NCBI RefSeq assembly: GCF_000497125.1
Contig: NC_090602.1
Coordinates: 682,001 to 746,000, forward strand
From: Spironucleus salmonicida
Lineage: Eukaryota
Direction: 5' to 3'
Length of the DNA stretch: 64,000 nt
Below, one piece after another: positions 3,541 to 53,455 of the stretch (positions are counted from its first letter, which is position 1; each line of letters starts with the position of its first letter). The notes below the pieces were generated by a model. It was not told where the DNA came from. It saw only the letters and a program-made list of their open reading frames with translations, and made no database searches. Position numbers and translations under genes: made by a program.

Positions 3541-4308
3541 ATGTTCTGCTACTTCTGCTACAGCATGGGGCAGCTACTCCAGTTCCACTTCAAGCTGCTG
3601 CAAACCGGCAGCCTAACGAAGGAAGACCTGGGGAGCCGGGAGCACAACTTCCAGTACACGGCAATGTACAACAAGTTCAGCGTAAAAGCGAACTTTTTGG
3701 AGGTCCGCAAGAATGCGAAGTGCGGAAGCCTGCTTTGGCGGATGCTCGCATTTCTGAAAGTAGTGGAAGCAAAGGCGAAAGAGCTGAAAACGATAGGAGA
3801 ATTAGAGAAATATTTTAGGGAGCAACTGCTCAAGCTCGACGGATAGTCGATTGTTGATATTGTCAGTCCGGTCCTGCCTGCTCTGGATGACGATGAGTCT
3901 TAGAACTCGAACTCTGATCGATTTGCACCATTTTTCAAGCCAGGATGGGACAAGTAGGAGGTAGAGAAAATGGTGCGCGTGATGGGGGTGCTGGCCCCCG
4001 CAGACTGCGTGGTTCCCTACCTGTGCGACCTGTACGCGCTCCGAACGGGTGCGGAGTTCGTGGTGAACAACACTAGCACGGTGGAGCAGTGGAAGAAGGA
4101 TAACACGGCGTACCTCATGCAGACGTAGAAGAAGCTGCTGCTGACCTGCGGCAGCTCGAAGGCCACCGCACCGATCCAGATGCATCCCGCGAAGCTGGAG
4201 CCGGGTGTGGATCCACTGGAGCCGCGGAATACCGGGGACGTGGATATAAAGACGGTACAGAAGGAGGCGTTCGCCCAGGTAGCACAGGTACAGGAGGCTG
4301 TGAAATGA
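3541..4308 (+). pseudogene. 5'-truncated copy of the DHHC gene (C-terminal 255 aa, no catalytic domain); may be translated from a junction ATG
   Basis: Mirrors 7379-8145; ATG at 3541 replaces the CTG of the full copy. Confidence 0.7.
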
Positions 4309-5491
4309 GTTTTACTTTTCTTGGCTGCACAGACGCTCTCACCTCCAGGGCCCACCACATGAAAACCGGGTCACCAGGGCTATCAGCTGATGTAAGTTTC
4401 GGGATGCGCTCCGATAGATTCCCTGTCTGGAGAGGCCTACGGGAAAAAGCTGTGTTAGTAGAATGCCCACGTTCCTGGGACTTCGACGCGCTATGATTCG
4501 CCGTTGGAGTGTTTTACTTCTTTCCGGTACTAGTTTAACATTTTATTGGTCCCATACTTTGCAATAGTACAGTGATTATACTACTAACCTAACCAAAATG
4601 ACTCATGTACTTAGCGGTTTTCCATCCAGTGTTTATTTTAATAATGGACGCAGAAAGAGCACGTTCTGGTTAGTTAGAAGAACATGAGATCGATGCAATG
4701 AATACCACGTCGGTTTACATTGATTTAGGATGCAGACAAGAGAAAGGGGTCAACAATGTAAAGCACTGGTCTGGTGAAATATATTATGCCGCATGAGTGA
4801 TATTTTACTATAATTATTAACTATTTATTAGCGTAATACACAGATGAGAGTTCATGTAAAAAGTAGTGTGGCTTTAAGCTAAGTTGAAAGTTATCAATAT
4901 ATCAAAATGTACTCTATCTATTAAATGAAAATATTTATTATATTTATTGTATAATAACAATGATAGTAGATATAATTATACTCAAATTAATAAGTAATAG
5001 TTTTACGCTGTATAGTGAAGAATATATCACCTGAATGCTACAACTAAAAGCTAAAAATATATATATTCAGCTTTAAGTTAAATATTCTATATTAAAATTT
5101 AAATCTACGAATTCAACACCTGTATTCTTGAGAAAGTTTACTTAAGTTTTATGCATGAAAAATGCATTAATTAAATTACTGATTATATTTAAGTGTATTT
5201 ATATTAGACTAAGATGATTAATTTGTGTAAAACTATCAATTGTGCTAATAATTATCTGGTAATTGGCGTAAAGTTTTCAAATTCTTCAATGAACGTATTA
5301 TTTTACGGGAACAGTAATACTAAAACTAATAGTATTATATTACAATATATAGTCAATTCTAAATACAGAATCTTCATATATAACACCATTATAACTGTAT
5401 CCCTGCCTTTCGGAAACCTACTAAAACCACAAAATCATATTGTTTATTATTACTATATATTTAAAATACTTGTCAACAACCTTTCTTCAAA

Positions 5492-5716
5492 ATGCAGGTA
5501 ATGAAAGCTAGATCCGCAACTAATACAAAGAGAAGGACCTTACCCCCGCTAAACCTATCAGCACCTAGGCTCTTTACTTTCGTCTCAGATCTTATAGCGA
5601 CACCTATAATGAGCCGTTCTCGATCTAAGTCACGAAGTTTAGATCTCTCAGATGACGAAGAGTGCAACTTTAGCGAGCAGGGGATACTTCTACTAAAGAA
5701 TTTTATTGTATAGTGA
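5492..5716 (+). CDS. Small protein (74 aa) of an LPP..TP..RS.S..SD.EE..F..QG family, IR1 left copy
   Basis: ORF ends TAG TGA; ungapped similarity to 25255-25464. Confidence 0.7.
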
Positions 5717-5970
5717 TTAATTTGGTTACGTTTTCGAGGTTTCAAATATTCTAGACTACAAAAAATCATTTTCCTCCAGCCAATGCTAACAGCAAATAAC
5801 TAGATTTGCCCGTAAGCTTTATTTAAATTATAATCTCAAGTATTGCAAGCAGTGTTACTATTATAATTATTTATATTTTAAAATTTGCTTTTAATTGTCA
5901 GCATTGGCTGGAGGAAAATGATTTTTTGTAGTCTAGAATATTTGAAATCTCGAAAACGTAACCAAATTAA

Positions 5971-6195
5971 TCACTATACAATAAAATTCTTTAGTAGAAG
6001 TATCCCCTGCTCGCTAAAGTTGCACTCTTCGTCATCTGAGAGATCTAAACTTCGTGACTTAGATCGAGAACGGCTCATTATAGGTGTCGCTATAAGATCT
6101 GAGACGAAAGTAAAGAGCCTAGGTGCTGATAGGTTTAGCGGGGGTAAGGTCCTTCTCTTTGTATTAGTTGCGGATCTAGCTTTCATTACCTGCAT
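5971..6195 (-). CDS. Small protein (74 aa), IR1 right copy
   Basis: Mirror of 5492-5716. Confidence 0.7.
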
Positions 6196-7378
6196 TTTGA
6201 AGAAAGGTTGTTGACAAGTATTTTAAATATATAGTAATAATAAACAATATGATTTTGTGGTTTTAGTAGGTTTCCGAAAGGCAGGGATACAGTTATAATG
6301 GTGTTATATATGAAGATTCTGTATTTAGAATTGACTATATATTGTAATATAATACTATTAGTTTTAGTATTACTGTTCCCGTAAAATAATACGTTCATTG
6401 AAGAATTTGAAAACTTTACGCCAATTACCAGATAATTATTAGCACAATTGATAGTTTTACACAAATTAATCATCTTAGTCTAATATAAATACACTTAAAT
6501 ATAATCAGTAATTTAATTAATGCATTTTTCATGCATAAAACTTAAGTAAACTTTCTCAAGAATACAGGTGTTGAATTCGTAGATTTAAATTTTAATATAG
6601 AATATTTAACTTAAAGCTGAATATATATATTTTTAGCTTTTAGTTGTAGCATTCAGGTGATATATTCTTCACTATACAGCGTAAAACTATTACTTATTAA
6701 TTTGAGTATAATTATATCTACTATCATTGTTATTATACAATAAATATAATAAATATTTTCATTTAATAGATAGAGTACATTTTGATATATTGATAACTTT
6801 CAACTTAGCTTAAAGCCACACTACTTTTTACATGAACTCTCATCTGTGTATTACGCTAATAAATAGTTAATAATTATAGTAAAATATCACTCATGCGGCA
6901 TAATATATTTCACCAGACCAGTGCTTTACATTGTTGACCCCTTTCTCTTGTCTGCATCCTAAATCAATGTAAACCGACGTGGTATTCATTGCATCGATCT
7001 CATGTTCTTCTAACTAACCAGAACGTGCTCTTTCTGCGTCCATTATTAAAATAAACACTGGATGGAAAACCGCTAAGTACATGAGTCATTTTGGTTAGGT
7101 TAGTAGTATAATCACTGTACTATTGCAAAGTATGGGACCAATAAAATGTTAAACTAGTACCGGAAAGAAGTAAAACACTCCAACGGCGAATCATAGCGCG
7201 TCGAAGTCCCAGGAACGTGGGCATTCTACTAACACAGCTTTTTCCCGTAGGCCTCTCCAGACAGGGAATCTATCGGAGCGCATCCCGAAACTTACATCAG
7301 CTGATAGCCCTGGTGACCCGGTTTTCATGTGGTGGGCCCTGGAGGTGAGAGCGTCTGTGCAGCCAAGAAAAGTAAAAC

Positions 7379-8830
7379 TCATTTCACAGCCTCCTGTACC
7401 TGTGCTACCTGGGCGAACGCCTCCTTCTGTACCGTCTTTATATCCACGTCCCCGGTATTCCGCGGCTCCAGTGGATCCACACCCGGCTCCAGCTTCGCGG
7501 GATGCATCTGGATCGGTGCGGTGGCCTTCGAGCTGCCGCAGGTCAGCAGCAGCTTCTTCTACGTCTGCATGAGGTACGCCGTGTTATCCTTCTTCCACTG
7601 CTCCACCGTGCTAGTGTTGTTCACCACGAACTCCGCACCCGTTCGGAGCGCGTACAGGTCGCACAGGTAGGGAACCACGCAGTCTGCGGGGGCCAGCACC
7701 CCCATCACGCGCACCATTTTCTCTACCTCCTACTTGTCCCATCCTGGCTTGAAAAATGGTGCAAATCGATCAGAGTTCGAGTTCTAAGACTCATCGTCAT
7801 CCAGAGCAGGCAGGACCGGACTGACAATATCAACAATCGACTATCCGTCGAGCTTGAGCAGTTGCTCCCTAAAATATTTCTCTAATTCTCCTATCGTTTT
7901 CAGCTCTTTCGCCTTTGCTTCCACTACTTTCAGAAATGCGAGCATCCGCCAAAGCAGGCTTCCGCACTTCGCATTCTTGCGGACCTCCAAAAAGTTCGCT
8001 TTTACGCTGAACTTGTTGTACATTGCCGTGTACTGGAAGTTGTGCTCCCGGCTCCCCAGGTCTTCCTTCGTTAGGCTGCCGGTTTGCAGCAGCTTGAAGT
8101 GGAACTGGAGTAGCTGCCCCATGCTGTAGCAGAAGTAGCAGAACAGGCCCATAACGACAAGCCCGCATGCGAACGCAACCCAAAGCTACCAGGTAGGTTA
8201 AGTCGTAAATATTTGTACCAGTGAAAATGCGATCTCCAAAATCGCAAAAAACGCACAAAATCCTATAAAAATAAGGATGTAGAAGTTCATTTTGTAGAAA
8301 TCCCAATGGTTCAGGAGGCCAATGTCGTGTCCAAGCCAGAAGCAATAATGATCATACCGTTGAATACAAAAATCTGAGCGGGATGAATGGGTTGAGCGCT
8401 GCGGCTTGAAAAACTTGCAGGTTTGGCAAAATCGCGAAGAGAGGCGATAAGAGAGTTTATTTATATGGAACGGTACTCTAGAAGCATGTGGCTACGTTAG
8501 AAACATATAAAATTGATTATCTGATTAGGTTTTTTCTAAATTTGGATATATATTCGCTTTAACAATTTAGGTAGAGTGAACAATAGACGGTACAATTCCA
8601 GGATCTATAATACCTGTTTTAATTGTTTGGTACACTGATAATATATATGTTAATGAAATTATGACATAAACTGGAATATTCATCGTGTATGGCACAAATG
8701 CGAACTATGCAAATGAAAAAAGTATTATGACTGGTACAGATAATAGCAGTACTGTAATCAATAGTTTTGAAGGTTATGGGCCTATAACGATTTTACCATC
8801 TCTGTAAATTGATAGTTTCCCAAGTTTCAT
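7379..8830 (-). CDS. DHHC-family protein S-acyltransferase (DHYC variant), 483 aa
   Basis: N-terminal TM segments, DPG motif, CQTCKFFKPQRSTHSSRSDFCIQRYDHYCFWLGHDIGLLNH, two further TMs, TKE motif. Confidence 0.9.
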
Positions 8831-9850: not shown

Positions 9851-11497
9851 TCAAAGATCGTCGCTTAGGAGCATATTCTTGATTGCGGCTTTTGGCCTGG
9901 ATTTCAAAAGCTACTTGTGTTTCAAAATGGTGTAAATGATTAATGCAATCATTACTAAGGATACATTAAGTCCAAAGATAAAAATTTTCTTTTTTAGCCC
10001 TTAGTAATTCTCACTATAGTTTGAGGCAGAGTTCAGGGTGAAATCATTATCGTCATTTCGGAACGAAAAGCTGACGGCCGACTTCGACCTGTAGAGCTGG
10101 GCAAGTTTTGAGATGCATGCCAAATCCGAGCAGTAGACACACACCTCCTCCTGCTGGGTAGAGTAGCGCATCGCCTGCGAGAGCTGGTAGTCGTCAAAGG
10201 TGACAGTGAATGTGATTTCCGTCTCGTTCACGTACGGGCAGTGCTGGGAGCCTTCGTTCGCAGTGAATGTGCCGCAAATCGCGTCGCTGCGATACGTTCC
10301 GAAAACCCCCACCCAGCACGTGCTCCTAACGTCCGTGACCCTGACGGTAGAGTACAGCAAGAGGTTGCTGCCAGCGTCGTAAAAGTAGTAGTGCATCTAG
10401 ATTTCTAGCCGCGAGAGGTCGTATGTCTGCAGCCGCGAGAGCACCCCGGAGCACACACCGCCGTCCGCGCGGTCATCGCAAATAATGTTTCGGTTGATGA
10501 CCTAGAACGAGAAGCTCGTCTCGGAGAAGATAATGTTCTCCAGGTTTTCGCCGGTGGTCCTGTCAACGAACTCGTACCGTGCGGTGAAGCCGGTGCTGGT
10601 AGCTAGATAGGTTTCGTCCAGCTCCTTCGCGTTCGGCACGGGGTCGGCGGTAAGCGTGAACCGCTGCGCCCAGATGATGAACTGCGGGTCCTAGAACATT
10701 GTCGGCAGGGACTCGCTCTCCATGGAGTTGATGAGCACGGTTTGAACAACCGAGACACCCTCCGTCTCGAGTTTGAGGTAGAGCTTTATGTCCTCGTAGA
10801 AGTTCTGGATGTACTGCGAAAAGTCGTAGTCGAACGTTACCTCCACAAGATACCCGACGACCGTTTCTGTTATAATGGTATTCCCGTCCTCGTCGACAAG
10901 ATTTATGTCAATAACGTCCTCCGTTCCATCAATGCGGGTGAGCTTAATGGAGTACTCTGAAAAATCTACCCCAAACTCGGGGCACTCGACGGTGGCGTAG
11001 ATCTAGAGCTTCGCGCTCTTCGACGCCCAGAACATGTGCGAGCGCGTCGCATCGAAGCACTCCGCGAACTGGGCGTGCGCGATGAGGATCTTCCCGATTG
11101 GCAGCGACGTGGCCCGCGTCAGAGACTTCAACTGGACCTGCACGGCCGCTGTCTGCTAGATGAAGTCGCACTGCGTGTCGTTCCCGATAAGGGGGCAGTC
11201 GTAGCAGAGCTCCTTGGTGCGCTGGTAGTCGAAGTTCTGGAACTCGCCCCGGATCGTGTAGTCGGGCATGTTAGAGACCTGAATGTCCATGTAGACACCT
11301 GGCGGTAGCTGGGCGCAGTCTGGGTCGAATTCCATGTCGAATTCCACACAAAGCTGGCCACGGTCGATATTGGCCACCAGAACGCTGTTGCGCCTGTAGC
11401 AATTCTCCAAGACTCTAGGTGGGTACTCCCTTTGCTCGTTTGCTAGGATTTGCTCGGTCAGAATCATGAGTGCCGGCTGAAACAGTGCGACTATCAT
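9851..11497 (-). CDS. Type I membrane protein of unknown family, 548 aa, IR2 left copy
   Basis: Hydrophobic N-terminus, scattered Cys, C-terminal TM plus basic tail; TAG/TAA read-through joins the track ORFs. Confidence 0.85.
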
Positions 11498-12940
11498 TTT
11501 TTAGATAGTGCTAAACGATTGTCTGTATCCAGAGTGAATATAATACAATTATGGGGTCGCAAATTTTCTATGGCAAAATATTTTGAAAATGTAAAAAGTT
11601 GCAGGATTTCAGGCCTAAAGCAGCATCGTAAAATTAATTAAAATTATACAGCAGAAATGCACATTCCATTTAATGATGTTGGTAAAATATCTTCAATATC
11701 GCGTTAAAGTGGAAAAGCGTGATGCAGTGGCGGTTCGGTGAATATACTAATGTGGGTCAGATAAACCGAGTGCTCAAAAAGACATCATGCTGAGAATAGA
11801 TGTATAATAGTTAGGATATAATAAATAATATATCAAGATATTGGTATCGATTATTATATAATGGATAGTACATCGAACCATAAATGTATGAATGTCGTGC
11901 AATTGGAAAATATATACTGGCACTATCTCTATAAGACTCTGCATTTAGTCTTGCTATCGTATTAAAAGATTCGCAAATGCACAATGTAGCTTGTCTATAG
12001 TCTATTATCAAGCGTGCAAACTAATGAAATAGGTTATATTAATTATATAGCTAACTAATCTAAAACATTATAAGTTATATCTAAATTTGAAGTGCCATAT
12101 TTTGGATATAACTTTGTTCCTTAGCTATTAATTTTATAATAATAAATATGCGCATCGACAGATGTGGTATCATATTTATCTTGGTGCAATTTCTAGCATA
12201 TATCAAAAAATATCAAGTACAACTTATTAATAATCTAGGGTGGTGTTTCATTTTAGCTAATCGCTAACTTTTTAATTGAATGAAACTCCAAACCTTAGCG
12301 GACCAATAGAGAACCTGTTAGATAAGTTGGTTAAAATAAAATAGTATTAAGAAGTACATAATCAACTCGTTATTAATATCAAAAAATAACTCATTCTATA
12401 ATATCGAAATGTTTGCTATGATTGCACTAAAATATGTTCGCTAAGGATAAATTATATAATCGAAGCATTTACTAAGTAAGCTTTAGAATATAAGCTGTTA
12501 GTGGATATGATTTTATGAAATTGTACTTTACTGAATCATATTACTGCATAATATCACGGTAATACTTTCTTATAAACTTGCTACTCACTGAATACTTAAA
12601 ATAAACATAGAAGCAGTATTATGATAATATATTTTTGCTATTTCACTGCTTTATGTTATTTATAATATCACTATAGAGAAACTATTTTCACTGGTAGATT
12701 TTTAAAAGTTTACATTATATTAGGAAGAAATAATTAAGTTTCATGGTAATGGGCTAAGATAGCTAAATTAAGTTATATAACTATATAAGATACTAAAATT
12801 TTACTGACTATTTTTAGGGCATTGCACCTATCTCATTTGCTAATTTCTAAATATTTATTAAATACTACGAATCCGCCATGCTTTTAACTGTGTTATAACT
12901 TTACGTCAGCACCTCCATATTCATAGGTATGTAAAATACA

Positions 12941-13150
12941 TCACTACTACAATAAGCTCTGCACTACGGCAACGCCCTGGTCGGCGAAGTCGTACTCCTC
13001 GCCGTCAGAGAACTCCAGCGGCAGCACCTGCGAGAGGCTGCGCGTAACCAGGGGCGTGCTGATGGATGCCGATATGTACTCCAGCAGCTTGGCCTAGGAG
13101 CCCATCTTTGGGGGCAGCGAGGTGGAGGTCCGGTCCTGTGTCCCGCGCAT
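12941..13150 (-). CDS. Small protein (69 aa) of the same family as 5492-5716, IR2 left copy
   Basis: MRGTQDRTSTSLPPKMGSQAKLLEYISASISTPLVTRSLSQVLPLEFSDGEEYDFADQGVAVVQSLLQQ; high third-position GC. Confidence 0.7.
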
Positions 13151-13425
13151 TACTGATAGGGCGGGAACCACACTCGTATATACCCGAATATACTTATTTG
13201 TGTTTCAGACAGTTTTCCAGTTACACTATCACTCCAGTATCGTGGCAAATACTATACATACGGAAAACCGTGGCGGAAATGGTTGTCCGAGAAACCAGTT
13301 TCTGGAGGCGGAATTCAACTTAGTGGAAACTACATGTCTGGCGAGACATTGGCGCTGCGAGTTAAGAATGGTTGGCCTTTTTGCGAAATAGTTAATACTA
13401 GTGGTAACCAGCCGCCAACGGGGAC

Positions 13426-14931
13426 TCAGCGGCCCACGAACTGCATGAAAACCAGCACGGACACGGCCTGGAGTATCAGGACGACGAGGACTGGGACGTA
13501 GCTGGCCGCCAGGTACTGAGACTGGATGGTGATGGTGGTCAGGGCGCTCGTGAGCCCGGCTTGGTCTACGGAGAGGTAGAGCGCGGACACTGGGACGGCG
13601 TGGCCCCCGAAGTCCTCCACGCGGTTGCGGTTCAGCTGCCGCACGAGGTCATGGTATGTGTAGGCCCCGTAGAACTGCAGGTAGTCCTGGTGGATGTAGA
13701 AGGCGCTCTCGGAGAGCCCGTAGCGGTGGCACCCCGGCTCGAGTGTGAGCGTGGCCAGGAAGCCGACCTGGAGCGTGAACGCCGGGAGCGCGTGGAAGGT
13801 CAGGTGGAAGGCTAGGGTCTGCGGGTTCGTGTCCGTCGAGCACGCCAGGACCTCCAGGCGCCCGCCGAGCACAAGCAGCTCCCCGATGCCGTAGGCCACA
13901 ACGCGGGTGCCGGCTATGCGCAGGGCCTTCGAGACGGCGCCGAAGTCGACCCGGGCGGATGTCCTGACCGCGTGCCCGGCGCGCATCTGGGCCAGCAGGC
14001 GCTCGTACGCGGCGGTGCAGGCCCGGCGGCCCTTGGCGCTGGCAAGGTTCGCGCAGGTGGAGTAGAAGGTGAGGTTGCCCACGTACCCCTCCTGGGGCAG
14101 GATCGTGTTCGCGGTGCGGTATACCGCTCCTCCCGCGGCGGCCCTGAAGTGCAGCCGCATGGGCGAGTCCGCGCGCGGGACCTCACGCCCCACGTGCTGT
14201 ACGACGACGACCTGGTCCAGGAGGAAGGCCACGTCGACGCTCTCGAAGATGCTCGTCAGGCCCTGCTCCACGAACGCCCGGAAGCGGATGTTGAGTGCCT
14301 GCGACGCGTTGGCCACCCGGAACACCACCTCCACCGCGCCCTTGGCGTTCAGCCTCGTGACCACCTTCGCGGCCTCGAACTGCAGGCCGGCCTTGGCGGT
14401 GCAGGCCAGTCCCGCGCGGTTGAAGGGGAACTCCTGGTCGACGGCGCAGTCAAAGAAGGAGTCGGGCGTGAGGAGCACGCTGCCATCTACGTAGATCGCG
14501 GCCAGCGTGTAGTCGAACGCCCCGAAGAAGGCCGCGTTCTCCACGACGATAACCGCGGAAATATTGTACATAAGGCGGCTACAGGCCCTCACCTAGACCA
14601 GGCGCATCTGGTCCCGGAACTGGTCGCCTATCTCCAGGGCGGGGAGCAGGACCATCTCGGACTCGCCCCGGAGCTGGAAGACCAGGTACACCACGTCCAG
14701 CGGGTAGCTGCGCTCGATGCTGAAGCTGACCACGGTGCTGGCGCCGTTGATGACGTCCACGACGTCCGTGGTGAAGGAGGCGCCGGTGGCGGCGTCGAGC
14801 ATCAGCAGGGACTCCTGGTTGATGGCGAAGAAGCTGCAGGCAGGGTCGCCGCTCACGGTGTAGCTGACCTGGATGGACTTGCTGAGGTACGAGACGAAGG
14901 CGTGGTGCACGGTGACGCAGGCGAGGAGCAT
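13426..14931 (-). CDS. Hypothetical membrane-anchored protein, 501 aa, IR2 left copy
   Basis: MLLACVTVHHAF start, one in-frame TAG, very high GC3, C-terminal TM. Confidence 0.8.
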
Positions 14932-14981
14932 TCTGGAGTGGCCTGAAGGTATATTGATGGGTGCCAAAGTCCAAGATCGCG

Positions 14982-15266
14982 TCACTCCAGCAGGCCCCAG
15001 AACGCGCACGAGTCGAAGGCGGTGCTCTGGAACGGGTCTTCCTGCAGCTGCTGCGCGCTCTCCTGCTTCCCCCTGGTGGGCCGCGCCTGCGCCCGCCCGT
15101 GCTGCACCCAGTAGTCGTAGCACTGGCGCGGCGTCTTGCCCAGGGCCGCACCGACCTCGATCCAGCTCAGGCGCCTCGGCCCGCCGTCCAGCTGCCGGGC
15201 CACGAGCTGCAGCAGGTCGCGGACGTCCGCGGCGCCCCATCTCGTGTATGAGCGTATAATTGTCAT
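14982..15266 (-). CDS. Myb/SANT-like DNA-binding protein, 94 aa (N-terminus MTIIRS)
   Basis: YTRWGAADVRDLLQLV..LSWIEVGAALGKTPRQCYDYW matches Myb Trp spacing. Confidence 0.8.
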   Translation of the reverse strand: MTIIRSYTRWGAADVRDLLQLVARQLDGGPRRLSWIEVGAALGKTPRQCYDYWVQHGRAQARPTRGKQESAQQLQEDPFQSTAFDSCAFWGLLE

Positions 15267-16038
15267 TTTGAACCAATCAGAATTAAGACCAAACTGAGTA
15301 ATGCTGATAATTTGGATTATTACATTGCTAGCTTTCGCAAAACCAATTGCATACCATCTAAATATTAAACCAATTTGAAAATTTAAGTCATCGCCAATTT
15401 ATATTATAATAGTATAATATTAAAATTGGAAAAGACATTACAACCAAAACATCCGTCAATTAAGCAATCAAGTATTTGGCTAATATAGAATATTATATCA
15501 TAATATATAAAATTGATTTAAAACTAAATTTAAAAATATTTTGTCGCAATCGAAAATGCGTCTATGCAAACCCGCAAATGTGAGCGGCGCGGTGCCAAAT
15601 CGGCTGAATTATACTGAAGGGAAGGTCATATTTCTAGCAAGTTTGGTGATGCGAGTCGTTGGCGCGTGTCGAACAGCGCGTTTTGCACGGTTGCGGTGGG
15701 CGTATTTCTGTGAAAATCGCTGTCGCTTTCGCAAGTATTTTAACTTACATTATTATATCTTTATAATTATATAAATTATTTTACAGAAAAAACGTAAAGT
15801 TATTTTTGCTATATAATATATAATAATTAAATTATTTATTTTTATTTCTATTCAACGTTCCCAAGTAAGTACTTTCACAGTGCACTAGTCACCGAAACTG
15901 CTGTTTCTTTCAACAGGTTATCTCGTAAAATCCTGGTGTGCACCCAATTTTTGCCTAATCAAATAATTCGTAGTAACGGTTACCAAACTAGTATTGCTGG
16001 TTCTAGAGCGTATACTCATTCCTGCTCAACTTTCGCGG

Positions 16039-16392
16039 TCATGGCGATTTCCTCAGTTTTTTGTGTATATTAGAAGGAAGAATTTGATGTTTAGTATAAT
16101 TATATGGTAATATCCAGGTAATTAATACAGGGTTTCCAGTGTAGTTTTTTAGGTGGTGGGTTGGTGATTCATAGAAATGGAATTTGCTGTCTTTGCAGGT
16201 GGATTTTCCAAAGAGAATTGCTTCTAAAGTTTTGTGTATTTATTGATACGTTAATTTGTATAATGAAAAATTGGTTTAATGATGAGGTGGTGAAAAGGTT
16301 AATTTTCGACAATACAGGTCAATTAGAGACTGTGTAGATGTAATTTCAGCTTAGTTTTTAGTAGTTATCAGAATCATTTAAGTAAGTTTCAT
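16039..16392 (-). CDS. Possible hypothetical protein, 117 aa
   Basis: Open table-6 frame only; no motif. Confidence 0.25.
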
Positions 16393-16506
16393 ATATTGTA
16401 GATGATTCAAAGGAATTTAAGTAATAGTAAATTTTACATTTTTAAATATATAAATAGTTCAATAAATATATTTATTAAATATAATAAAAATTAATGTATA
16501 AGGCGA

Positions 16507-35532: not shown

Positions 35533-35546
35533 TTTGGAATGGTCAC

Positions 35547-38018: not shown

Positions 38019-38049
38019 GGTATTCGATCACTTTCCACTGCCGCTCCGA

Positions 38050-39935: not shown

Positions 39936-40109
39936 TCACTCGGAGCCCTCGGCCGCCTCGAAGGTCTTGAAGCCGCTCACGTAGTCCCGCGAGCTGACGC
40001 GGGGCGTGGTGGCCATCCGAGGCGAGCGCAGGCTCTCGACGACCGTCCCGGGCCGGGCCGAGAAGATGAGCTGCAGGGCGTACTGGTTTTTGGCTTTGAA
40101 ACCCTCCAT
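39936..40109 (-). CDS. Small hypothetical protein, 57 aa (MEGFKAKNQYALQLIFSARPG..)
   Basis: CCAGAATG start context as at 23474 and 50115; high GC3; GAG TGA stop. Confidence 0.55.
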   Translation of the reverse strand: MEGFKAKNQYALQLIFSARPGTVVESLRSPRMATTPRVSSRDYVSGFKTFEAAEGSE

Positions 40110-40602
40110 TCTGGGCGTCCGCGGATAGTGAGTTTGCCATAGTATTACGGTACTGTAGACGGAAGCAAACCACTCCGCTCGGTGGAGTTTGAATACTAAG
40201 CGGGGACGAAAAACCGGAATAGGGAAGGGGTTTTGGAGATAATATTACCGCATGGGAGGTATAAGGGGCGGAAGCCTCTCCTATAACGCAAATGGGAGTT
40301 TTGCGAGGCAGGCGACCTTGCGGCTGCACAGCGCATCCTGGCCAGGCTGCATAAATGCCCACGCACCTCGCTGCCGACTGCTGCTGAAAGTGGCGCTTGG
40401 AGCCGCTTCGGGAAGGCGCAGTTGCGCAGCTCAAAGGCCGCAGTGCGCGCATAACAGCTAACCTGCCTTCCAGAAGGGAATGCTTGCTTAAGCTAGCCAC
40501 GCCCCAGCCTTAGCGCGGGTGCGCCACTTGCTTTACTCCCACTCCTAACGATGAGCGCAGTTATTATACTATGGTACCCACATATAAAACAAATCCAATC
40601 GA

Positions 40603-41493
40603 ATGTCCGAGGCTGGAAAGTGCACCAACACGATCGACATGTGCCTAGCTGGCACGTTCTGCCCTGCATCTGGCACCGAGGAGGTAGCCTGCAAGTCCTG
40701 CGCCTCCGGGACCATCGCCCCAGGCCAGGGCTGCAACTGCACCGCCGACATCCCAACGCCAAACTGCGCGGCCTGCGGTGGCAATAAGTGCTCGCAATGC
40801 CTCCCCGGCACCTACCTCAGCGCCGCCGGCCTGTGCCCCGCGTGCGACGCGAGCTGCAAAACGTGCCAGACCGACGCGGCGCACTGCCTGACCTGCCAGG
40901 ATGGCCTTGTGCTCGAGAACGCGACCTGCCGCATGCGCTGCACGGCGCACAAGGACTGCGCGGACATCAACCTGGGCTTCTGCGACGCCGCCTCGGGGCG
41001 CTGTGCGCCGTGCTTCGCGGGATGCCTGCGCTGCACCTCCGCCGCGTTCTGCGTTGCCTGCAGCGGCAACGGCACCAACACCGTCCTGACTGTCGACGGC
41101 CAGTGCACACCGAAGTGCGCGAATCTGGCAGAGGGCCAGTACTGCCGGAACGGCGCCCCGGCGTCCTGCGACGTCCACTCCACCTCGGCCTGCAAGTGCG
41201 GGAGCGCGAAGAACTGCGCGGTCTGTTCGGGCCAGAACGGCGGCTGCGGCGCCTGTCTGCCGCACGTTCTGCTGGATGCCGCGGGGGCGTGCGGCGCCTG
41301 CGCGGAGGGCTACGAGGCCTTCGGGGATCTGTGCGTGTCGGCCGCTGGGGAGTCGCCGTCGCCGTCGGACCGTCTGGGCGGGGGCGCGATTGCAGGCATC
41401 GTAATCGGCGTGCTGGCGGTCACGGGGGCCGTGGGGGGCGGCCTGGCGTACTATTTCACAATGCGCTCCAAGAAGTATTTGCTGCTGAAGTGA
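40603..41493 (+). CDS. Cysteine-rich membrane protein (VSP/CRMP-like), 296 aa
   Basis: CXXC-rich; TM GGGAIAGIVIGVLAVTGAVGGGLAYYF. Confidence 0.9.
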   Translation: MSEAGKCTNTIDMCLAGTFCPASGTEEVACKSCASGTIAPGQGCNCTADIPTPNCAACGGNKCSQCLPGTYLSAAGLCPACDASCKTCQTDAAHCLTCQDGLVLENATCRMRCTAHKDCADINLGFCDAASGRCAPCFAGCLRCTSAAFCVACSGNGTNTVLTVDGQCTPKCANLAEGQYCRNGAPASCDVHSTSACKCGSAKNCAVCSGQNGGCGACLPHVLLDAAGACGACAEGYEAFGDLCVSAAGESPSPSDRLGGGAIAGIVIGVLAVTGAVGGGLAYYFTMRSKKYLLLK

Positions 41494-42173
41494 GGTTTGG
41501 GTATTTGGGATGGGCGGACGGGTTCGTGCTGGGCGGTTTTGCCGGCGAAGGTGCGACTTCCGATGCGGCCTAAGGTGGTAGATAGGAGCCGTCCATTCTG
41601 CGGCTCGCAGTATGTATTACCCCCAATCGGGCGAGTGCGAGAACACTGGGGCGCGACGAGAATGCTAGTTTTGTGCTGGCTAAGGCTTGGTCTGCGCCGC
41701 ACTGGGGCTGGGGATTGAGCGTGCACGGGGTAGCCTTTGCATGCGATTTGTGCGCAAAAGGTCAGCAAAGTTGGCGTGCATTCGCGAGTAAGTCTCCGCT
41801 TAGGGTTGTAGCGCGGATCTATACTCTTGACGGCGCGCGGCTTCCAAAGAATGCGACGCCGACTACCTCGGTCTGCGAATGCGCAGAGTACGGATTCGTT
41901 GGGCCATAGCCTGAATCTGCACCGCCTGGGCACCTACGCAGGAAAGGCAGGCCATGCCCCTGAGGTGTACTGCACACGAATCTTGCGGTCCATTGCTACC
42001 CGCTAAGAAGCCGTATTGCACGTTCAGCCGCCACGTCTCCTCGAAATCAGAATTGCTGCGTGCTTGCTGCTGCATTAGACGCGCCAGTTTTGTACTAAGA
42101 TGACAGCGCCCTCCTGTGTTGCTACAGGCCCTTTTCCAAATAAGGCCCAGTGCAAAACAGCTACACAGCAAAG

Positions 42174-46718
<4,545 letters not shown>

Positions 46719-47452
46719 TTTTTTAAGGAACGGGTAATAAGATCCACAAATTAATCAGCATAAATAATCCATATAAAACGTATTTTACAACTCAAAAATA
46801 TGTAAACATGTTATATAAATATTTTTATGTATGAATACTTATCTATATTCTAAGTAATCTGTAAAAAAAATAATATTCATTTGTTTCTGTATAATATTGA
46901 TAATATATCTTAATTTAACGTAAACTTTGTTAAAAATACTAAATATTAATCTATCATACAATTTTATTTGTACAACTCCGTAAATATTGTCATATATATT
47001 TTTATTTAGATTTTATTACGCAATTGAAAACGTATAGTCATTAATAATAAGATCTAATTATATAAATTAATTTATATAAATTTTTGATTATGTAATATAA
47101 ATATTATATAATGATATATATTTAGATAATGCTTAGATAATTATTCTAGTCATTAAGGACTTTACTTATATATATTTTATTACGTATTAAATTATTAATT
47201 AGGTATGTTAGATAAATTATTATGATTTTAAATAGTTTTCTCGTATTTAAGTAATTGTACAAATTTTTTGATATCATTTACTTAAAGAAATATAAAGTTG
47301 TAAATGTATTTTACTAATAGATATCCTATAACTTTTAACATTGTCGAATGAATAATATTTAGTTACCGAAACAGTATTATTACTATTCAAACAATAATTA
47401 GCTGTTAAATAAAGATTTTTTAAATAAATATTACTTATTAATAATTTATATT

Positions 47453-47761
47453 AAAAATTGCTGCTTAGTGATATTAGACGAAGCAACGGCTCAGGTCGAC
47501 CGAGAAAACGATGCGCTGATACAGAGAACACTGCGCGACACTCTGCACGGCACGGCTATCCTGTCAATTGCCCACCGGCTAGATACCATCATAGATTTCG
47601 ATAAGGTTATCGTAGTCGACAAGGGCGAAATCGTGGAGATGGGAGGCGTATACGACCTAATTTAGCAGCGAGGCCAGTTTTATGACATGGTCATGAAGAC
47701 TGGCGATGAAATGAGCCAACGGCTAATCCAGATGGCCAAAGACTGCGTGCCCACTGAGTGA
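47453..47761 (+). pseudogene. Duplicated C-terminal fragment (about 100 codons) of the ABC transporter
   Basis: Mirror of 42174-42482, preceded by unrelated AT-rich DNA. Confidence 0.75.
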
Positions 47762-48441
47762 CTTTGCTGTGTAGCTGTTTTGCACTGGGCCTTATTTGGA
47801 AAAGGGCCTGTAGCAACACAGGAGGGCGCTGTCATCTTAGTACAAAACTGGCGCGTCTAATGCAGCAGCAAGCACGCAGCAATTCTGATTTCGAGGAGAC
47901 GTGGCGGCTGAACGTGCAATACGGCTTCTTAGCGGGTAGCAATGGACCGCAAGATTCGTGTGCAGTACACCTCAGGGGCATGGCCTGCCTTTCCTGCGTA
48001 GGTGCCCAGGCGGTGCAGATTCAGGCTATGGCCCAACGAATCCGTACTCTGCGCATTCGCAGACCGAGGTAGTCGGCGTCGCATTCTTTGGAAGCCGCGC
48101 GCCGTCAAGAGTATAGATCCGCGCTACAACCCTAAGCGGAGACTTACTCGCGAATGCACGCCAACTTTGCTGACCTTTTGCGCACAAATCGCATGCAAAG
48201 GCTACCCCGTGCACGCTCAATCCCCAGCCCCAGTGCGGCGCAGACCAAGCCTTAGCCAGCACAAAACTAGCATTCTCGTCGCGCCCCAGTGTTCTCGCAC
48301 TCGCCCGATTGGGGGTAATACATACTGCGAGCCGCAGAATGGACGGCTCCTATCTACCACCTTAGGCCGCATCGGAAGTCGCACCTTCGCCGGCAAAACC
48401 GCCCAGCACGAACCCGTCCGCCCATCCCAAATACCCAAACC

Positions 48442-49332
48442 TCACTTCAGCAGCAAATACTTCTTGGAGCGCATTGTGAAATAGTACGCCAGGCCGCCCC
48501 CCACGGCCCCCGTGACCGCCAGCACGCCGATTACGATGCCTGCAATCGCGCCCCCGCCCAGACGGTCCGACGGCGACGGCGACTCCCCAGCGGCCGACAC
48601 GCACAGATCCCCGAAGGCCTCGTAGCCCTCCGCGCAGGCGCCGCACGCCCCCGCGGCATCCAGCAGAACGTGCGGCAGACAGGCGCCGCAGCCGCCGTTC
48701 TGGCCCGAACAGACCGCGCAGTTCTTCGCGCTCCCGCACTTGCAGGCCGAGGTGGAGTGGACGTCGCAGGACGCCGGGGCGCCGTTCCGGCAGTACTGGC
48801 CCTCTGCCAGATTCGCGCACTTCGGTGTGCACTGGCCGTCGACAGTCAGGACGGTGTTGGTGCCGTTGCCGCTGCAGGCAACGCAGAACGCGGCGGAGGT
48901 GCAGCGCAGGCATCCCGCGAAGCACGGCGCACAGCGCCCCGAGGCGGCGTCGCAGAAGCCCAGGTTGATGTCCGCGCAGTCCTTGTGCGCCGTGCAGCGC
49001 ATGCGGCAGGTCGCGTTCTCGAGCACAAGGCCATCCTGGCAGGTCAGGCAGTGCGCCGCGTCGGTCTGGCACGTTTTGCAGCTCGCGTCGCACGCGGGGC
49101 ACAGGCCGGCGGCGCTGAGGTAGGTGCCGGGGAGGCATTGCGAGCACTTATTGCCACCGCAGGCCGCGCAGTTTGGCGTTGGGATGTCGGCGGTGCAGTT
49201 GCAGCCCTGGCCTGGGGCGATGGTCCCGGAGGCGCAGGACTTGCAGGCTACCTCCTCGGTGCCAGATGCAGGGCAGAACGTGCCAGCTAGGCACATGTCG
49301 ATCGTGTTGGTGCACTTTCCAGCCTCGGACAT
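48442..49332 (-). CDS. Cysteine-rich membrane protein, IR4 right copy
   Basis: Mirror of 40603-41493. Confidence 0.9.
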   Translation of the reverse strand: MSEAGKCTNTIDMCLAGTFCPASGTEEVACKSCASGTIAPGQGCNCTADIPTPNCAACGGNKCSQCLPGTYLSAAGLCPACDASCKTCQTDAAHCLTCQDGLVLENATCRMRCTAHKDCADINLGFCDAASGRCAPCFAGCLRCTSAAFCVACSGNGTNTVLTVDGQCTPKCANLAEGQYCRNGAPASCDVHSTSACKCGSAKNCAVCSGQNGGCGACLPHVLLDAAGACGACAEGYEAFGDLCVSAAGESPSPSDRLGGGAIAGIVIGVLAVTGAVGGGLAYYFTMRSKKYLLLK

Positions 49333-49825
49333 TCGATTGGATTTGTTTTATATGTGGGTACCATAGTATAATAACTGCGCTCATCGTTAGGAGTGGGAGT
49401 AAAGCAAGTGGCGCACCCGCGCTAAGGCTGGGGCGTGGCTAGCTTAAGCAAGCATTCCCTTCTGGAAGGCAGGTTAGCTGTTATGCGCGCACTGCGGCCT
49501 TTGAGCTGCGCAACTGCGCCTTCCCGAAGCGGCTCCAAGCGCCACTTTCAGCAGCAGTCGGCAGCGAGGTGCGTGGGCATTTATGCAGCCTGGCCAGGAT
49601 GCGCTGTGCAGCCGCAAGGTCGCCTGCCTCGCAAAACTCCCATTTGCGTTATAGGAGAGGCTTCCGCCCCTTATACCTCCCATGCGGTAATATTATCTCC
49701 AAAACCCCTTCCCTATTCCGGTTTTTCGTCCCCGCTTAGTATTCAAACTCCACCGAGCGGAGTGGTTTGCTTCCGTCTACAGTACCGTAATACTATGGCA
49801 AACTCACTATCCGCGGACGCCCAGA

Positions 49826-49999
49826 ATGGAGGGTTTCAAAGCCAAAAACCAGTACGCCCTGCAGCTCATCTTCTCGGCCCGGCCCGGGACGGTCGTCGAG
49901 AGCCTGCGCTCGCCTCGGATGGCCACCACGCCCCGCGTCAGCTCGCGGGACTACGTGAGCGGCTTCAAGACCTTCGAGGCGGCCGAGGGCTCCGAGTGA
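49826..49999 (+). CDS. Small hypothetical protein, 57 aa, IR4 right copy
   Basis: Mirror of 39936-40109. Confidence 0.55.
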   Translation: MEGFKAKNQYALQLIFSARPGTVVESLRSPRMATTPRVSSRDYVSGFKTFEAAEGSE

Positions 50000-50114
50000 C
50001 ACTTTAGTTCCTTCCAGCGCGCGGAGCGGACACCGCAAATCTCTCTTTTACCGCTCCTGCGAGGGCCGGTTTGTTCGCGTCCGGCTCCGAATCGTATACT
50101 TAGTAGCAGCCAGA

Positions 50115-51392
50115 ATGATGTTCGCCGTACTCTGCCAGGCCTGCTACCCCGCCACCTACGACAACGAGGCTCCCGCGGAGGCGGACGCCGGCGTGCACGT
50201 CATGCTCACGCCCGCTGGCCTGAGCCGCTACGCAACAGCGAACGTCAACGCTGCCCTGCGGGACCTGATCGCCAGCCTGCAGATCCCGACGCTCGCCTTC
50301 CGCATCGCGGGATTCGACGTGGAGCTCAGCGGCGGCCGGTTCAGCGCGATCACCGTCGGAGGCGTGTCCTTCCGGCTCGTCGCGGATGAGGCCTACCTGC
50401 GGATCGCAAACACCTCGCTCGCCTTCCTCTTCCAGCTCGCCATCACCCAGCGCAGCTTCCCCTACCTGCAGGACGCGGAGACGCTGGAGATCGCGATCGA
50501 GGACCTCGCGGCCGGCGCCTACGTGGAGGTGCGCTTCCCCGACCCGGCGTGCAGGGCCCGGTACCAGCTCGCCCCCGTCCGCGCGCAGCTGCAGGTGAAG
50601 ACCTTCCGCGTCAAGTTCCGGTGCGGGCTGCAGGTGATCCTGAACGCCCTCAGCGGCCTCCTCACCTCCGTCATCGAGGCCCAGCTGAACGGCGAGCTCG
50701 GGGACACGCTGCTCACGAGCATCAGCGAGGGGCTGCTGGGGATGCTCGCGAGCATGCCGCAGGAGTCCCGCAGCGTGGCCTCGGCGGACGTCATCAGCGA
50801 CCAGCGGCCCTTCGCGGGGATCGAGGTGCGCGGCGGACTCCTGCACGTCGCCTACACGGGCCAGCGGGCGATGCTGGAGCCCGTGACCCGCCGGTGTGAG
50901 GGCTGGTTCGATGCCGAGCTCGCGCCGCCGCCGGCCTACTACTCGAACAGCGACGTGCAGTACCTGCTCGAGCGGAGCGTGTTCAACGCGGGCTTCGCGC
51001 TGTACCTGCAGAGGCCCAGCAACCGCGCGGTCAGCGAGCGCGTGGCCATCGCGAACCTGACGCTGCTGGAGTTCCGCAACACCGGGGCGCGGCTCCGCGT
51101 GGACGTCGAGGCGGACGGGCGGTCAGAGGCGCTGCTGTACCTGGAGCCCGTGGTGCTGACCAGCACGCGCGGCGGGACCGGGGTATTCGGCATCAGCCTG
51201 GCGCACCTGGTCTCGTCCCCGACGCTGCTGACCGCGGCCGAGGTCGCCTTGCTGGAGGCCCACGTCGCCGCCAGCTTCGCCCCCTACGACTACTCGGTGG
51301 ACAACGTGCTGGGCGCGGTGCTCTCGAGCCAGGTCGTCTGCTACGTGGACCGCAGCTGGGTGCACATCGGCGTCGACTTGGGTGCTGAGTGA
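50115..51392 (+). CDS. BPI/LBP-like protein, IR4 right copy
   Basis: Mirror of 38543-39820 with G/E and I/L substitutions. Confidence 0.65.
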   Translation: MMFAVLCQACYPATYDNEAPAEADAGVHVMLTPAGLSRYATANVNAALRDLIASLQIPTLAFRIAGFDVELSGGRFSAITVGGVSFRLVADEAYLRIANTSLAFLFQLAITQRSFPYLQDAETLEIAIEDLAAGAYVEVRFPDPACRARYQLAPVRAQLQVKTFRVKFRCGLQVILNALSGLLTSVIEAQLNGELGDTLLTSISEGLLGMLASMPQESRSVASADVISDQRPFAGIEVRGGLLHVAYTGQRAMLEPVTRRCEGWFDAELAPPPAYYSNSDVQYLLERSVFNAGFALYLQRPSNRAVSERVAIANLTLLEFRNTGARLRVDVEADGRSEALLYLEPVVLTSTRGGTGVFGISLAHLVSSPTLLTAAEVALLEAHVAASFAPYDYSVDNVLGAVLSSQVVCYVDRSWVHIGVDLGAE

Positions 51393-51486
51393 GAGTTTGC
51401 TGCCGCACTTCGCCTTTCTGCCAGCGCCCAGCTCTGCAGGCCTGCCGCCACGGTTGAATCAACTGCTCACTCGCGCCTATCCGCCC

Positions 51487-51885
51487 TCACCTGCGGTCCT
51501 TGAAGCGGCGGTCCACCTTCCTGAGTAGCCTCTTGGGGGCGTTGGCGGCGAGGAAGGCCTCGAGCGCTGCGAGCCGCTCCTGGGTCTGGAGGATGAGGGC
51601 GTCGTGCGCGCCACGGTCCTGGAGCAGCTTCCGCGCGAGGAGGTGGTGCTGGGTAAGGTCGAACATGAGCTGCCTGCGCGCGACGCCGTGGTCCCGCGCC
51701 TCGACCACCTCCATGCCCTCCGGCACGACCTCCTGCTCCACAGTGGCGTTCATGGCCCTCCGCGCGCTGGCCGCATCGTCGGTGCACACACGCAGGTGGG
51801 GACCTCGGGTGAGCGCGTGCACCTGGTGGTTGCGGGCGTGCTGGCCGTGGTGCTCCCAGGCGGGCTGGTTGTGCGCGAATGACAT
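51487..51885 (-). CDS. Hypothetical protein, 132 aa, IR4 right copy
   Basis: Mirror of 38050-38448. Confidence 0.65.
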   Translation of the reverse strand: MSFAHNQPAWEHHGQHARNHQVHALTRGPHLRVCTDDAASARRAMNATVEQEVVPEGMEVVEARDHGVARRQLMFDLTQHHLLARKLLQDRGAHDALILQTQERLAALEAFLAANAPKRLLRKVDRRFKDRR

Positions 51886-51916
51886 TCGGAGCGGCAGTGG
51901 AAAGTGATCGAATACC

Positions 51917-53167
51917 TCAGATATAGGCGATGTCCCTCTCGACCTTCGCCACGGCCCTGCTCTTCACCGCGCGCACCACCATCACCGCTGCCGCAGCGAG
52001 CACGCAGACGCCTAGGGCCACCCCCACGGCGATGCCCGCGATGGAGCCCGCACCCAGCCTGTTCACCACGGCCGCCGCCGGGCACGCGCCCTGCTCGCAG
52101 ACGACGCCCTCACCGCAGTGGGTCTTCCCCCCGCACAGGCAGGCGGCCCCGTGGATGTCCGCCTGGTGGCCGTCCGCGCACGCCGAGCAGCGGTCGGGCT
52201 GGAGCTTGGTGCAGCCCGTGCACCCGGCGATGGCGAGGCAGGCGTCGTCCCTGATGCAGGTCTTGCGGTCCAGGGACACCGTGAAGCCCGCCTCGCAGGC
52301 GTAGCAGAGCCTGTTGTCGAGGTAGGTGCAGCTGCTGCAGTCTGGGATCAGCTCGGGCGCGCTGAGGCAGGCGTTTTTGCGCACACACACCCTCGCGTAG
52401 AGGGCGCAGGAGTGCCCCGTGTCGCAGCCCGTACCGGACCCGGGGTGGCACTCGCACACGGTCCCGGTAGTGTTCGGGGCGAGGTTGTACTCGCACCTGC
52501 CGCACAGCGCGGAGTCGACCAGATGGCAGCCCGAGCACCCGGCGATGGCGCGGCATGTCTCGTTGGAGGCGCAGAGCCCGGTCTTCAAGTCGAGCGCGAA
52601 CCCCTGCCGGCACGTGACGCAGACTGCGCGGTCGTGGATGGAGCAGAAGGTGCAGTTGACGTCGCTCTTGCAGGTGTCGCTGGGGATGCAGCCACCCTTC
52701 GTGGGGGAGCACCCGAACCTGCTGGGGCACTTCTAGCCGGAGCCCACCTCGCACTCGCAGACGGAGCCGTTCGCGGACGGGTGCAGGCCAGATAGGCACT
52801 TTGCACACTTGGATGGAGCCTCAGGGTTGCAGGCGTTGCAGTATTTGATCCCCTTGCACGGGGCCAAGCTGGCACACGCGGTGCCGTCGTCGGAGAGGAA
52901 CATGCCCGTGGCGCATTTGTAGCACTTGCGGTGGTCCTTGAAGGTGCAGTGTGTGCAGTTATCGATTTTGTAGCACTCGTGCTTATCTACACAGATCCCT
53001 GCTTCCTGGGCGCACGACTGACCATTGGGGCAGCCGATACCAGAGCCCTTGGCACACTCGCACTTTTTGGTGCTGGAGTTGTAGTTGAGGTACGCAGAAC
53101 AGGTCGCGCATTCTGTCGGGTCTGCGATGGAGCACTCGTAGCAGTCAAGCACTTCGGCGCAAGACAT
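51917..53167 (-). CDS. Cysteine-rich membrane protein, IR4 right copy; possible upstream start at 53185
   Basis: Mirror of 36768-38018 with N/D, N/Y and V/A changes near the N-terminus. Confidence 0.9.
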
Positions 53168-53455
53168 TTGGGGAGTGGGCACCATGATTATTATCTATTT
53201 GGTGAAGATACACACTCTAACGCGGAAATTAAAAAACTTTCCCGGCTTTTTCGACTAGCTATTATTTAGTGAAAATACAGTGAATTATGAAGTCAGATAA
53301 TGCAGCAAAAATATATTTAAATTTTATTTATACTTATTAAATTGTGGTTTATCAAATACTTTTAATAGATTATTTTACTGATACTAAAAGTATTAATAAA
53401 TAAAAATGATCATACAATACGCATACACTAAATAAATAAAAATAGGTATCAATCG

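Follow-up and report, generated by a model that had tools for sequence, protein, structure and literature searches.

Four gene-bearing inverted repeats with near-identical, GC-rich arms in a 64-kb stretch of a Spironucleus salmonicida chromosome

In this work, we analysed a DNA stretch of 64,000 nt from the genome of the diplomonad fish parasite Spironucleus salmonicida (contig NC_090602.1, positions 682,001 to 746,000 of the forward strand), hereafter called the window, with all positions counted from its first nucleotide. An earlier note made from the sequence had described it as tiled by four consecutive inverted repeats, each consisting of two near-identical, gene-bearing arms separated by a spacer. 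A repeat search of the whole window (seed 14, minimum 200 nt) returned five inverted pairs and no direct families. The five pairs represent four arm-spacer-arm units, because the arm of unit 2 is split by a 1-nt length difference (found as 9967-12621/25783-28437 and 12624-15255/23150-25781, with the indel at 12622-12623). A sensitive self-blastn of the window gave six non-self pairs, five inverted and one direct. The inverted ones were the four units and an imperfect palindrome of 69 nt (81%) at 18405-18471, while the sole direct pair (53 nt, 85%) lies within a gene for a SHIPPO-repeat protein. Both searches thus bear out the number, coordinates and sizes of the units as first described, as well as the statement that the window holds no near-identical direct tandem. 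The arms together make up 28,713 of the 64,000 nt, and every arm sequence is present exactly twice in the window. The 69-nt palindrome is located in an AT-rich part of the unit 2 spacer, within two overlapping unsupported code-6 open reading frames (ORFs).

The genes were read with TAA and TAG as Gln, as the long genes are open only under that code. The genes opened in this way include those for CCT-zeta, an MFS transporter and a DHHC palmitoyltransferase, and the ORF of an ABC transporter contains 61 in-frame TAA/TAG codons. A bacterial reading (table 11) was dropped because it gave few long ORFs. The four units contain the following:

Unit 1, left arm, 3537-5791 (2255 nt): the truncated 3′ half of the DHHC gene (3541-4308, plus strand), AT-rich non-coding DNA and a 74-aa ORF (5492-5716, plus strand).
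Unit 1, spacer, 5792-5895 (104 nt, 22% GC): non-coding DNA, itself not palindromic.
Unit 1, right arm, 5896-8150 (2255 nt): the parental copy, with its outer edge inside the intact DHHC palmitoyltransferase gene (7379-8830, minus strand).
Unit 2, left arm, 9967-15255 (about 5289 nt): a gene for a 548-aa membrane protein (9851-11497, minus strand), AT-rich intergenic DNA and a GC-rich gene for a membrane protein of about 500 aa (13426-14931, minus strand).
Unit 2, spacer, 15256-23149 (7894 nt): a 290-aa gene resembling cysteine-rich membrane protein (CRMP) genes (16507-17379, minus strand), a gene for an EGF/transmembrane protein (18595-19890, minus strand), an LRR-like 700-aa gene (19993-22095, minus strand) and the SHIPPO-repeat gene (22220-22858, plus strand).
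Unit 2, right arm, 23150-28437 (about 5289 nt): the second gene of about 500 aa (23474-24979, plus strand) and the second 548-aa gene (26907-28553, plus strand), the latter with a diverged C-terminal tail.
Unit 3, left arm, 32442-33524 (1083 nt): the final 76 codons of a 361-aa gene (31582-32667, plus strand), an EF-hand gene (32842-33285, plus strand) and the initial 75 codons of an LRR-like gene of 659 aa (33300-35279, plus strand).
Unit 3, spacer, 33525-35307 (1783 nt, 28% GC): the body of the LRR-like gene.
Unit 3, right arm, 35308-36390 (1083 nt): a 5′ fragment of the LRR-like gene (minus strand), the second EF-hand gene (35547-35990, minus strand) and a 3′ fragment of the 361-aa gene (36165-36422, minus strand).
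Unit 4, left arm, 36757-42486 (5730 nt, 64% GC): the gene CRMP2, coding for cysteine-rich membrane protein 2 (36738-38018, plus strand), a BPI-like 425-aa gene (38543-39820, minus strand), a CRMP-like 296-aa gene (40603-41493, plus strand) and, from the ABC transporter gene, the final 104 codons.
Unit 4, spacer, 42487-47448 (4962 nt, 30% GC): the body of the gene for the 1514-aa ABCC-type transporter (42174-46718, minus strand).
Unit 4, right arm, 47449-53178 (5730 nt): a 3′ fragment of the ABC transporter gene (47449-47761, plus strand), the CRMP-like gene (48442-49332, minus strand), the BPI-like gene (50115-51392, plus strand) and a CRMP2 gene (51917-53185, minus strand) whose start codon and upstream region are its own.

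The arms of one unit are almost identical to each other: they differ at 7 of 5730 positions in unit 4, 29 of 5287 (plus the indel) in unit 2, 4 of 2255 in unit 1 and none of 1083 in unit 3. All differences are substitutions save the single 1-nt indel of unit 2, and repeats of 1-6 kb with at least 99.4% identity cannot arise by chance. At the protein level, the paired CRMP2, BPI-like, CRMP-like 296-aa and EF-hand proteins are either identical or two to three residues apart between the arms. The arm ends disregard gene borders and cut through genes. In units 1, 3 and 4 (three of the four) the edges are sharp, with no residual homology beyond them. No target-site duplication was found, the longest direct match flanking any of the four units being 2 nt; no k-mer common to the junctions of different units exceeded the random expectation; and no Pfam match to a transposase, recombinase or reverse transcriptase was obtained among 37 translated ORFs at E<=0.01. 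The absence of a transposase, a shared terminal motif and a target-site duplication, claimed when the repeats were first noticed, therefore stands. The description of the four units as unrelated needs one correction, as units 2 and 3 in their spacers and units 2 and 4 hold paralogues. The LRR-like genes of unit 2 (19993-22095, minus strand) and unit 3 (33300-35279, plus strand) are distantly related (22% identity, E=2e-18), and an identity of 45% connects the 290-aa gene in the spacer of unit 2 with the 296-aa gene of the unit 4 arm (40603-41493, plus strand). The LRR-like paralogues (about 700 aa) share a conserved C-terminal block and fall into no Pfam family. The 290-aa gene (16507-17379, minus strand), a single-copy relative of the arm gene, has a lower GC content at third codon positions (GC3) than its 296-aa counterpart.

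The right arm of unit 1 was taken as parental, since its outer edge falls within the intact DHHC gene. In the 511-aa reading of this gene the Pfam DHHC domain covers residues 160-285, and the arm edge is near residue 255. Edge substitutions at 3540-3541 versus 8146-8147 have converted a Leu codon of the DHHC sequence to ATG in the left copy only, so that the fragment gains its own start codon; the older annotation lists it as a hypothetical protein. In unit 4, the arm edges lie 7 (left) and 2 (right) codons past the start codons of the CRMP2 genes; hence, these two genes differ in their upstream regions and N-termini. The two CRMP2 proteins show three residue differences and distinct first residues (10 versus 6), and are otherwise identical. 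The ABCC-type transporter carries the Pfam domains ABC_tran and ABC_membrane. Pfam assigned no family to the 548-aa, about 500-aa, 425-aa and 296-aa proteins or to CRMP2; the name CRMP2 was taken from a 90% cluster mate, EST43837.1, and "BPI-like" for the 425-aa protein is an Atlas lead only (score 0.91). The older CRMP2 model EST43837.1 is a mosaic, combining the N-terminus of the left copy with Ala96 of the right-arm variant. Such a model is expected when near-identical copies are assembled from short reads, and the mosaic may stem from the assembly or else point to conversion or to variation between alleles.

The existence of the repeats on the chromosome is supported by protein models of probably independent origin. 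Exact look-ups found 18 of the 30 protein models of the window on record, among them the 483-aa DHHC protein (P0125) and P0142 from the unit 2 spacer; the proteins found belong to a single contig, and S. salmonicida is the species name given to their 90% cluster mates. The 12 look-ups without a match included the right-arm CRMP2 in its two versions with a longer start, the truncated copy of the LRR-like gene, and the membrane protein of unit 2 in its 604-aa and 501-aa versions. Models of an older S. salmonicida protein set (EP00702 identifiers, paired with EST-type accessions in named rows) cross 10 of the 16 arm junctions, where the model sources include the older data set and one junction rests on an EST-named cluster mate; the other six junctions have no independent support. 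These older models anchor both arms of all four units in different unique flanks. For instance, P0127 (EST43732.1, 200 aa) begins at the Met peculiar to the left copy of unit 1. Both tail variants of the 548-aa protein are present in the older set as P0139 and P0140 (EST48348.1). P0144 crosses the outer and P0137 the inner junction of the unit 3 left arm, P0145 (82 aa) takes eight residues from the unique right flank of unit 3 before it enters the arm, and P0147 (137 aa) runs from residues specific to the unit 4 spacer into the right arm. An origin in the assembly, as envisaged in the earlier note, would mean that fold-back chimeric long reads or a mis-join of haplotypes created false mirror copies, and the very short spacer of unit 1 (104 nt) and the identical arms of unit 3 do have the typical look of a fold-back. 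However, copy-specific junctions are crossed on both arms of every unit, including the left-only ATG of unit 1, the arms differ by substitutions that cluster at the edges, and the spacers of 1.8-7.9 kb contain intact genes. Moreover, as stated in the available text of PMC9509377, optical maps and read coverage were used to check the published assembly, and the older S. salmonicida assembly was fragmented. We therefore rejected a mis-assembly, which is very unlikely as the source of these repeats.

The arms stand out by their base composition: their GC content is 54.7%, as compared to 33.4% in the spacers and 36.2% in the rest of the window, and the arm side was GC-richer in all 16 junction comparisons. 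The change takes place inside genes, since GC3 is greater inside the arm for each of the five genes cut by an arm edge:

DHHC gene: GC3 0.73 inside the arm, 0.34 outside.
ABC transporter gene: GC3 0.60 inside the arm, 0.24 outside.
361-aa gene: GC3 0.62 inside the arm, 0.24 outside.
LRR-like gene: GC3 0.53 inside the arm, 0.22 outside.
548-aa gene: GC3 0.77 inside the arm, 0.49 outside.

In the DHHC and ABC transporter genes a Pfam domain spans the arm edge, so the step does not reflect a join of two genes. When adjacent windows of 75 codons were compared, four of the six boundary steps in GC3 (0.31-0.36) exceeded the largest of 64 control steps taken in unique coding sequence (0.267). The intergenic DNA of the unit 4 arms is GC-rich as well (55-68%). 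In its available text, PMC9509377 reports that duplicated regions (at least 2 kb, at least 95% identity) occupy 19.2% of the genome and have a GC content of 44.7% versus 30.7% elsewhere, that they are enriched around genes of cysteine-rich proteins, and that its authors suggest gene conversion. As a separate observation, AT-rich stretches are present within the arms at 4500-5790 and 11500-13000 and in the mirror copies of both, with adjoining coding arm DNA of 50-70% GC. Another GC-rich gene, hyp395, lies outside the four units at 60177-61364 (plus strand): it encodes a 395-aa transmembrane protein, has a GC3 of 0.955 and is set in AT-rich unique DNA. Its twin, with a single different residue (Y28C), is found on the same 1.61-Mb contig outside the window, and a fifth repeat may be present here, with hyp395 in one arm and the partner arm past the window end. 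Ribosomal RNA operons were considered as a cause of the GC-rich arms and dropped, with no Rfam matches and no tRNAs from ARAGORN.

The clearest sign that arms have been homogenised comes from unit 2. At its outer edge the homology does not end but runs about 116 nt further, to a common stop codon, at about 64% nucleotide identity, so that within one continuous ORF the identity falls from 99.5% in the arm to about 64% just outside it. The two 548-aa proteins are accordingly identical up to residue 507 and differ at 15 of the last 41 residues. A diverged tail beside such an arm indicates that the pair is old and that its core has been overwritten. Furthermore, the differences between arms are concentrated near the arm edges: those within 60 nt of an edge amount to 3 of 7 in unit 4, 4 of 4 in unit 1 and 4 of 29 in unit 2, where 2-5% would be expected. 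This is the pattern to be expected if conversion tracts seldom reach the arm ends. In unit 2, 22 of the 29 differences fall in the AT-rich intergenic third of the arm (1928 nt; odds ratio 5.5, p=2e-5). The 90% protein cluster of each arm gene consists of the two arm copies and alternative models only, leaving the partner arm as the only close donor.

Taken together, the data are best explained, with a probability of about 0.72 in our estimate, by four real and independent inverted segmental duplications whose arms would have been homogenised by GC-biased gene conversion from arm to arm. The setting would be a duplication-rich stretch of the 1.61-Mb S. salmonicida chromosome, where each duplication would stem from a break or a copying event at arbitrary points, as suggested by arm ends that lie inside genes and leave truncated fragments in the derived copy. 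Repeated non-reciprocal recombination within one chromosome would then keep the arms near-identical, and, if this conversion favours G/C over A/T, the GC content of the arms, and above all GC3, would drift above that of the AT-rich neighbours. The finding that only inverted pairs are seen at such an identity probably reflects survival, since an exchange between direct repeats deletes a copy, whereas an exchange between inverted ones at most flips the spacer. Such flipping of spacers is plausible by analogy with human Y palindromes (as indicated by the title of PMC3723533); the short junction sequences are alike in either spacer orientation. The junctions of the four units give no sign of a fold-back or a template switch as the mechanism of formation; the short spacer of unit 1 (104 nt) would be compatible with a fold-back, and a template switch would fit the larger spacers.

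Several observations weigh against this explanation. That a duplication is older than the identity of its arms is shown directly for unit 2 only; the edges of units 1, 3 and 4 are sharp and lack residual homology outside the arms, and the lack of any difference in unit 3 could mean no more than that this unit is young. Two of the six boundary steps in GC3 (0.09 in the LRR-like gene and 0.15 in the left 548-aa gene) fall within the control variation, and the non-coding stretches in the arms of units 1 and 2 have a GC content of only 24-32%. As almost no differences are found in the AT-rich stretch of unit 1, neither less conversion nor a uniform GC-biased conversion explains it. The GC bias of conversion is deduced from base composition only. 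The assembly behind the older protein set appears to be independent of long reads, judging by the style of its accessions and the account in the available part of PMC9509377. Finally, four inverted units out of four correspond to p=0.06 under a 50:50 null, which is not significant by itself, and PMC9509377, in the same part, reports direct tandem repeats elsewhere in the genome (a histone H4 array and a tandem repeat of 64 kb). The restriction of near-identical duplicates to the inverted orientation therefore holds for this window only. Accordingly, the idea of palindrome maintenance put forward in the earlier note is supported by the identity step in unit 2, the edge clustering and the shift in GC and GC3, while the general palindrome-forming genome architecture proposed along with it is unproven and partly contradicted by the direct tandem repeats.

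The sharp edges of units 1, 3 and 4 and the absence of differences in unit 3 would also fit young inverted duplications without any continuing conversion, that is, four recent copying events inverted by coincidence, where the copied segments were already GC-rich as members of GC-rich families that duplicate. This would agree with the AT-rich non-coding parts of the arms, which are not GC-enriched, and with the GC-rich hyp395 gene (GC3 0.955) outside the arms, but that gene itself has a twin one residue different on the same contig. A recent partial copy of an AT-rich gene should match the AT richness of that gene, so the GC3 steps inside the DHHC and ABC transporter genes, with Pfam domains crossing the arm edge, count against youth, and so do the diverged tail of unit 2, which marks an old pair with a homogenised core, and the clustering of differences at the edges. 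We consider this explanation unlikely, though less so than the two that follow. Selection alone, that is, purifying selection on surface and signalling genes combined with a preference for GC-rich codons in highly expressed genes, would account for the fact that the GC excess of units 1 and 2 is found mostly in the coding parts of their arms and for the lower number of differences in coding than in intergenic arm DNA. It is an improbable cause, given that truncated and presumably useless fragments (the 3′ half of DHHC, the 3′ end of ABC, the 5′ end of the LRR-like gene and the 3′ end of the 361-aa gene) are as conserved and GC-rich as their parents, that the intergenic DNA of unit 4 is also GC-rich, and that synonymous sites are identical between the arms, for which selection at the protein level offers no explanation.

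The arm-spacer-arm geometry would in itself fit a mobile element or a programmed invertible switch, with the arms serving as terminal inverted repeats or as targets of a site-specific invertase; as a switch, unit 4 would flip the ABC transporter between two identical sets of surface-protein genes. However, no direct match of at least 3 nt flanks the units and their ends have no common motif, none of the 37 ORFs matches a transposase, recombinase or reverse transcriptase, and the arms are of kilobase length, differ in content, end inside host genes and occur only twice each, which makes such an origin hardly credible. An inverted triplication, as in origin-dependent inverted-repeat amplification (ODIRA) or duplication-triplication/inversion-duplication (DUP-TRP/INV-DUP) rearrangements, does not fit, because each arm is present in exactly two copies in the window and the 90% protein clusters hold only the two arm copies.

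Besides the units, we noted single-copy genes between and beside them, as well as one in the unit 2 spacer:

561-1616, minus strand: a carbamate-kinase-type amino-acid kinase.
22220-22858, plus strand: the SHIPPO (sperm-tail PG-rich) repeat protein, with the internal 53-nt direct repeat.
30563-31417, minus strand: a CFAP161-like flagellar protein.
53456-55081, minus strand: CCT-zeta.

The best named relatives of CCT-zeta are those of Hexamita inflata (63%) and Trepomonas (62%). No introns were needed in any gene examined, and the intergenic DNA in the window has a GC content as low as 16-25%.

If arm-to-arm conversion is indeed the cause, this locus would offer a protist example of GC-biased gene conversion that is compact and internally controlled, where the DHHC and ABC transporter genes straddle an arm edge and pass from a GC3 of about 25-35% to 60-80%. 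The gene fragments in the arms, several of them annotated as hypothetical proteins, would be by-products of duplication, and short-read assemblies of such genomes may be expected to yield mosaic gene models, as exemplified by the older CRMP2 model. Should the pattern extend over the whole genome, it would account for the patchiness of GC content in S. salmonicida and link it to the inverted vsp pairs of Giardia, suggesting that diplomonads preserve duplicated genes as palindromes, much as non-recombining sex chromosomes do. A further-reaching and tentative proposal, which we find doubtful at present, is that duplicated genes of this AT-rich diplomonad, in which sex is rare or absent, normally persist as inverted pairs. 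In that case, palindrome arms would make up the greater part of the GC-rich fifth of the genome, and local GC content would be a direct read-out of arm-to-arm conversion, with GC3 steps marking the limits of tracts within tens of bases. The CRMP2 copies of unit 4, which differ in promoter and start codon, could then allow expression to be switched through spacer inversion or a read-through hairpin RNA, a device for antigenic variation common with Giardia.

A literature search for inverted repeats or palindromes in Spironucleus returned nothing relevant, and the words "inverted" and "palindrom" are absent from PMC9509377 (supplements aside) and from the 2014 S. salmonicida genome paper. Nor are arm edges inside genes described in the available text of PMC9509377, again leaving aside the supplements. 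Thus, the inverted orientation with its arm/spacer anatomy, arms mostly without cysteine-rich genes, and the GC3 steps within genes seem undescribed for Spironucleus. As for the origin of the units, inverted duplication by fold-back or template switch and ODIRA (PMC3907307, PMC10622511, PMC4689423) are candidate routes to an adjacent inverted copy with a short spacer like that of unit 1. Fold-back events, however, usually occur at chromosome ends or in dicentrics, and ODIRA gives an inverted triplication, whereas each arm is found here exactly twice.

Palindromes of mammalian sex chromosomes (PMC3723533, PMC8981503) similarly consist of a unique spacer enclosed by inverted arms with an identity above 99%, on chromosomes that likewise lack regular crossing-over. 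Their identity is ascribed to GC-biased arm-to-arm conversion, and rare spacer inversions are reported. The mammalian arms are 10-1000 times longer, while the GC shift is far larger in our case (GC3 up to 0.96 versus about 0.25 nearby), and conversion and its bias, proposed here for Spironucleus, were measured directly in the mammalian palindromes.

The closest precedent is provided by the inverted vsp pairs, encoding variant-specific surface proteins (VSPs), of Giardia lamblia and G. muris (PMC2996952, PMC7641422), which are diplomonads like Spironucleus. In G. lamblia, identical vsp genes were not found outside inverted pairs (PMC2996952), and seven such pairs are reported for G. muris, where genes or fragments of pseudogenes are located in between (PMC7641422). 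The GC3 step at the arm edges, seen in our case, is not described in the available texts of these two papers. Moreover, the spacers vary here from 104 nt to 7.9 kb, in contrast to 2-4 kb in G. lamblia, the arms hold up to three whole genes plus fragments, and three of the four units have no cysteine-rich gene in their arms but carry a DHHC fragment, EF-hand genes or genes for other membrane proteins instead. Despite these differences, the resemblance is close: just as in Giardia, identical genes are arranged head-to-head or tail-to-tail around a kilobase spacer, their flanks are identical up to a point of abrupt divergence, and the arms of unit 4 carry genes of cysteine-rich membrane proteins, the Spironucleus counterpart of the VSPs.

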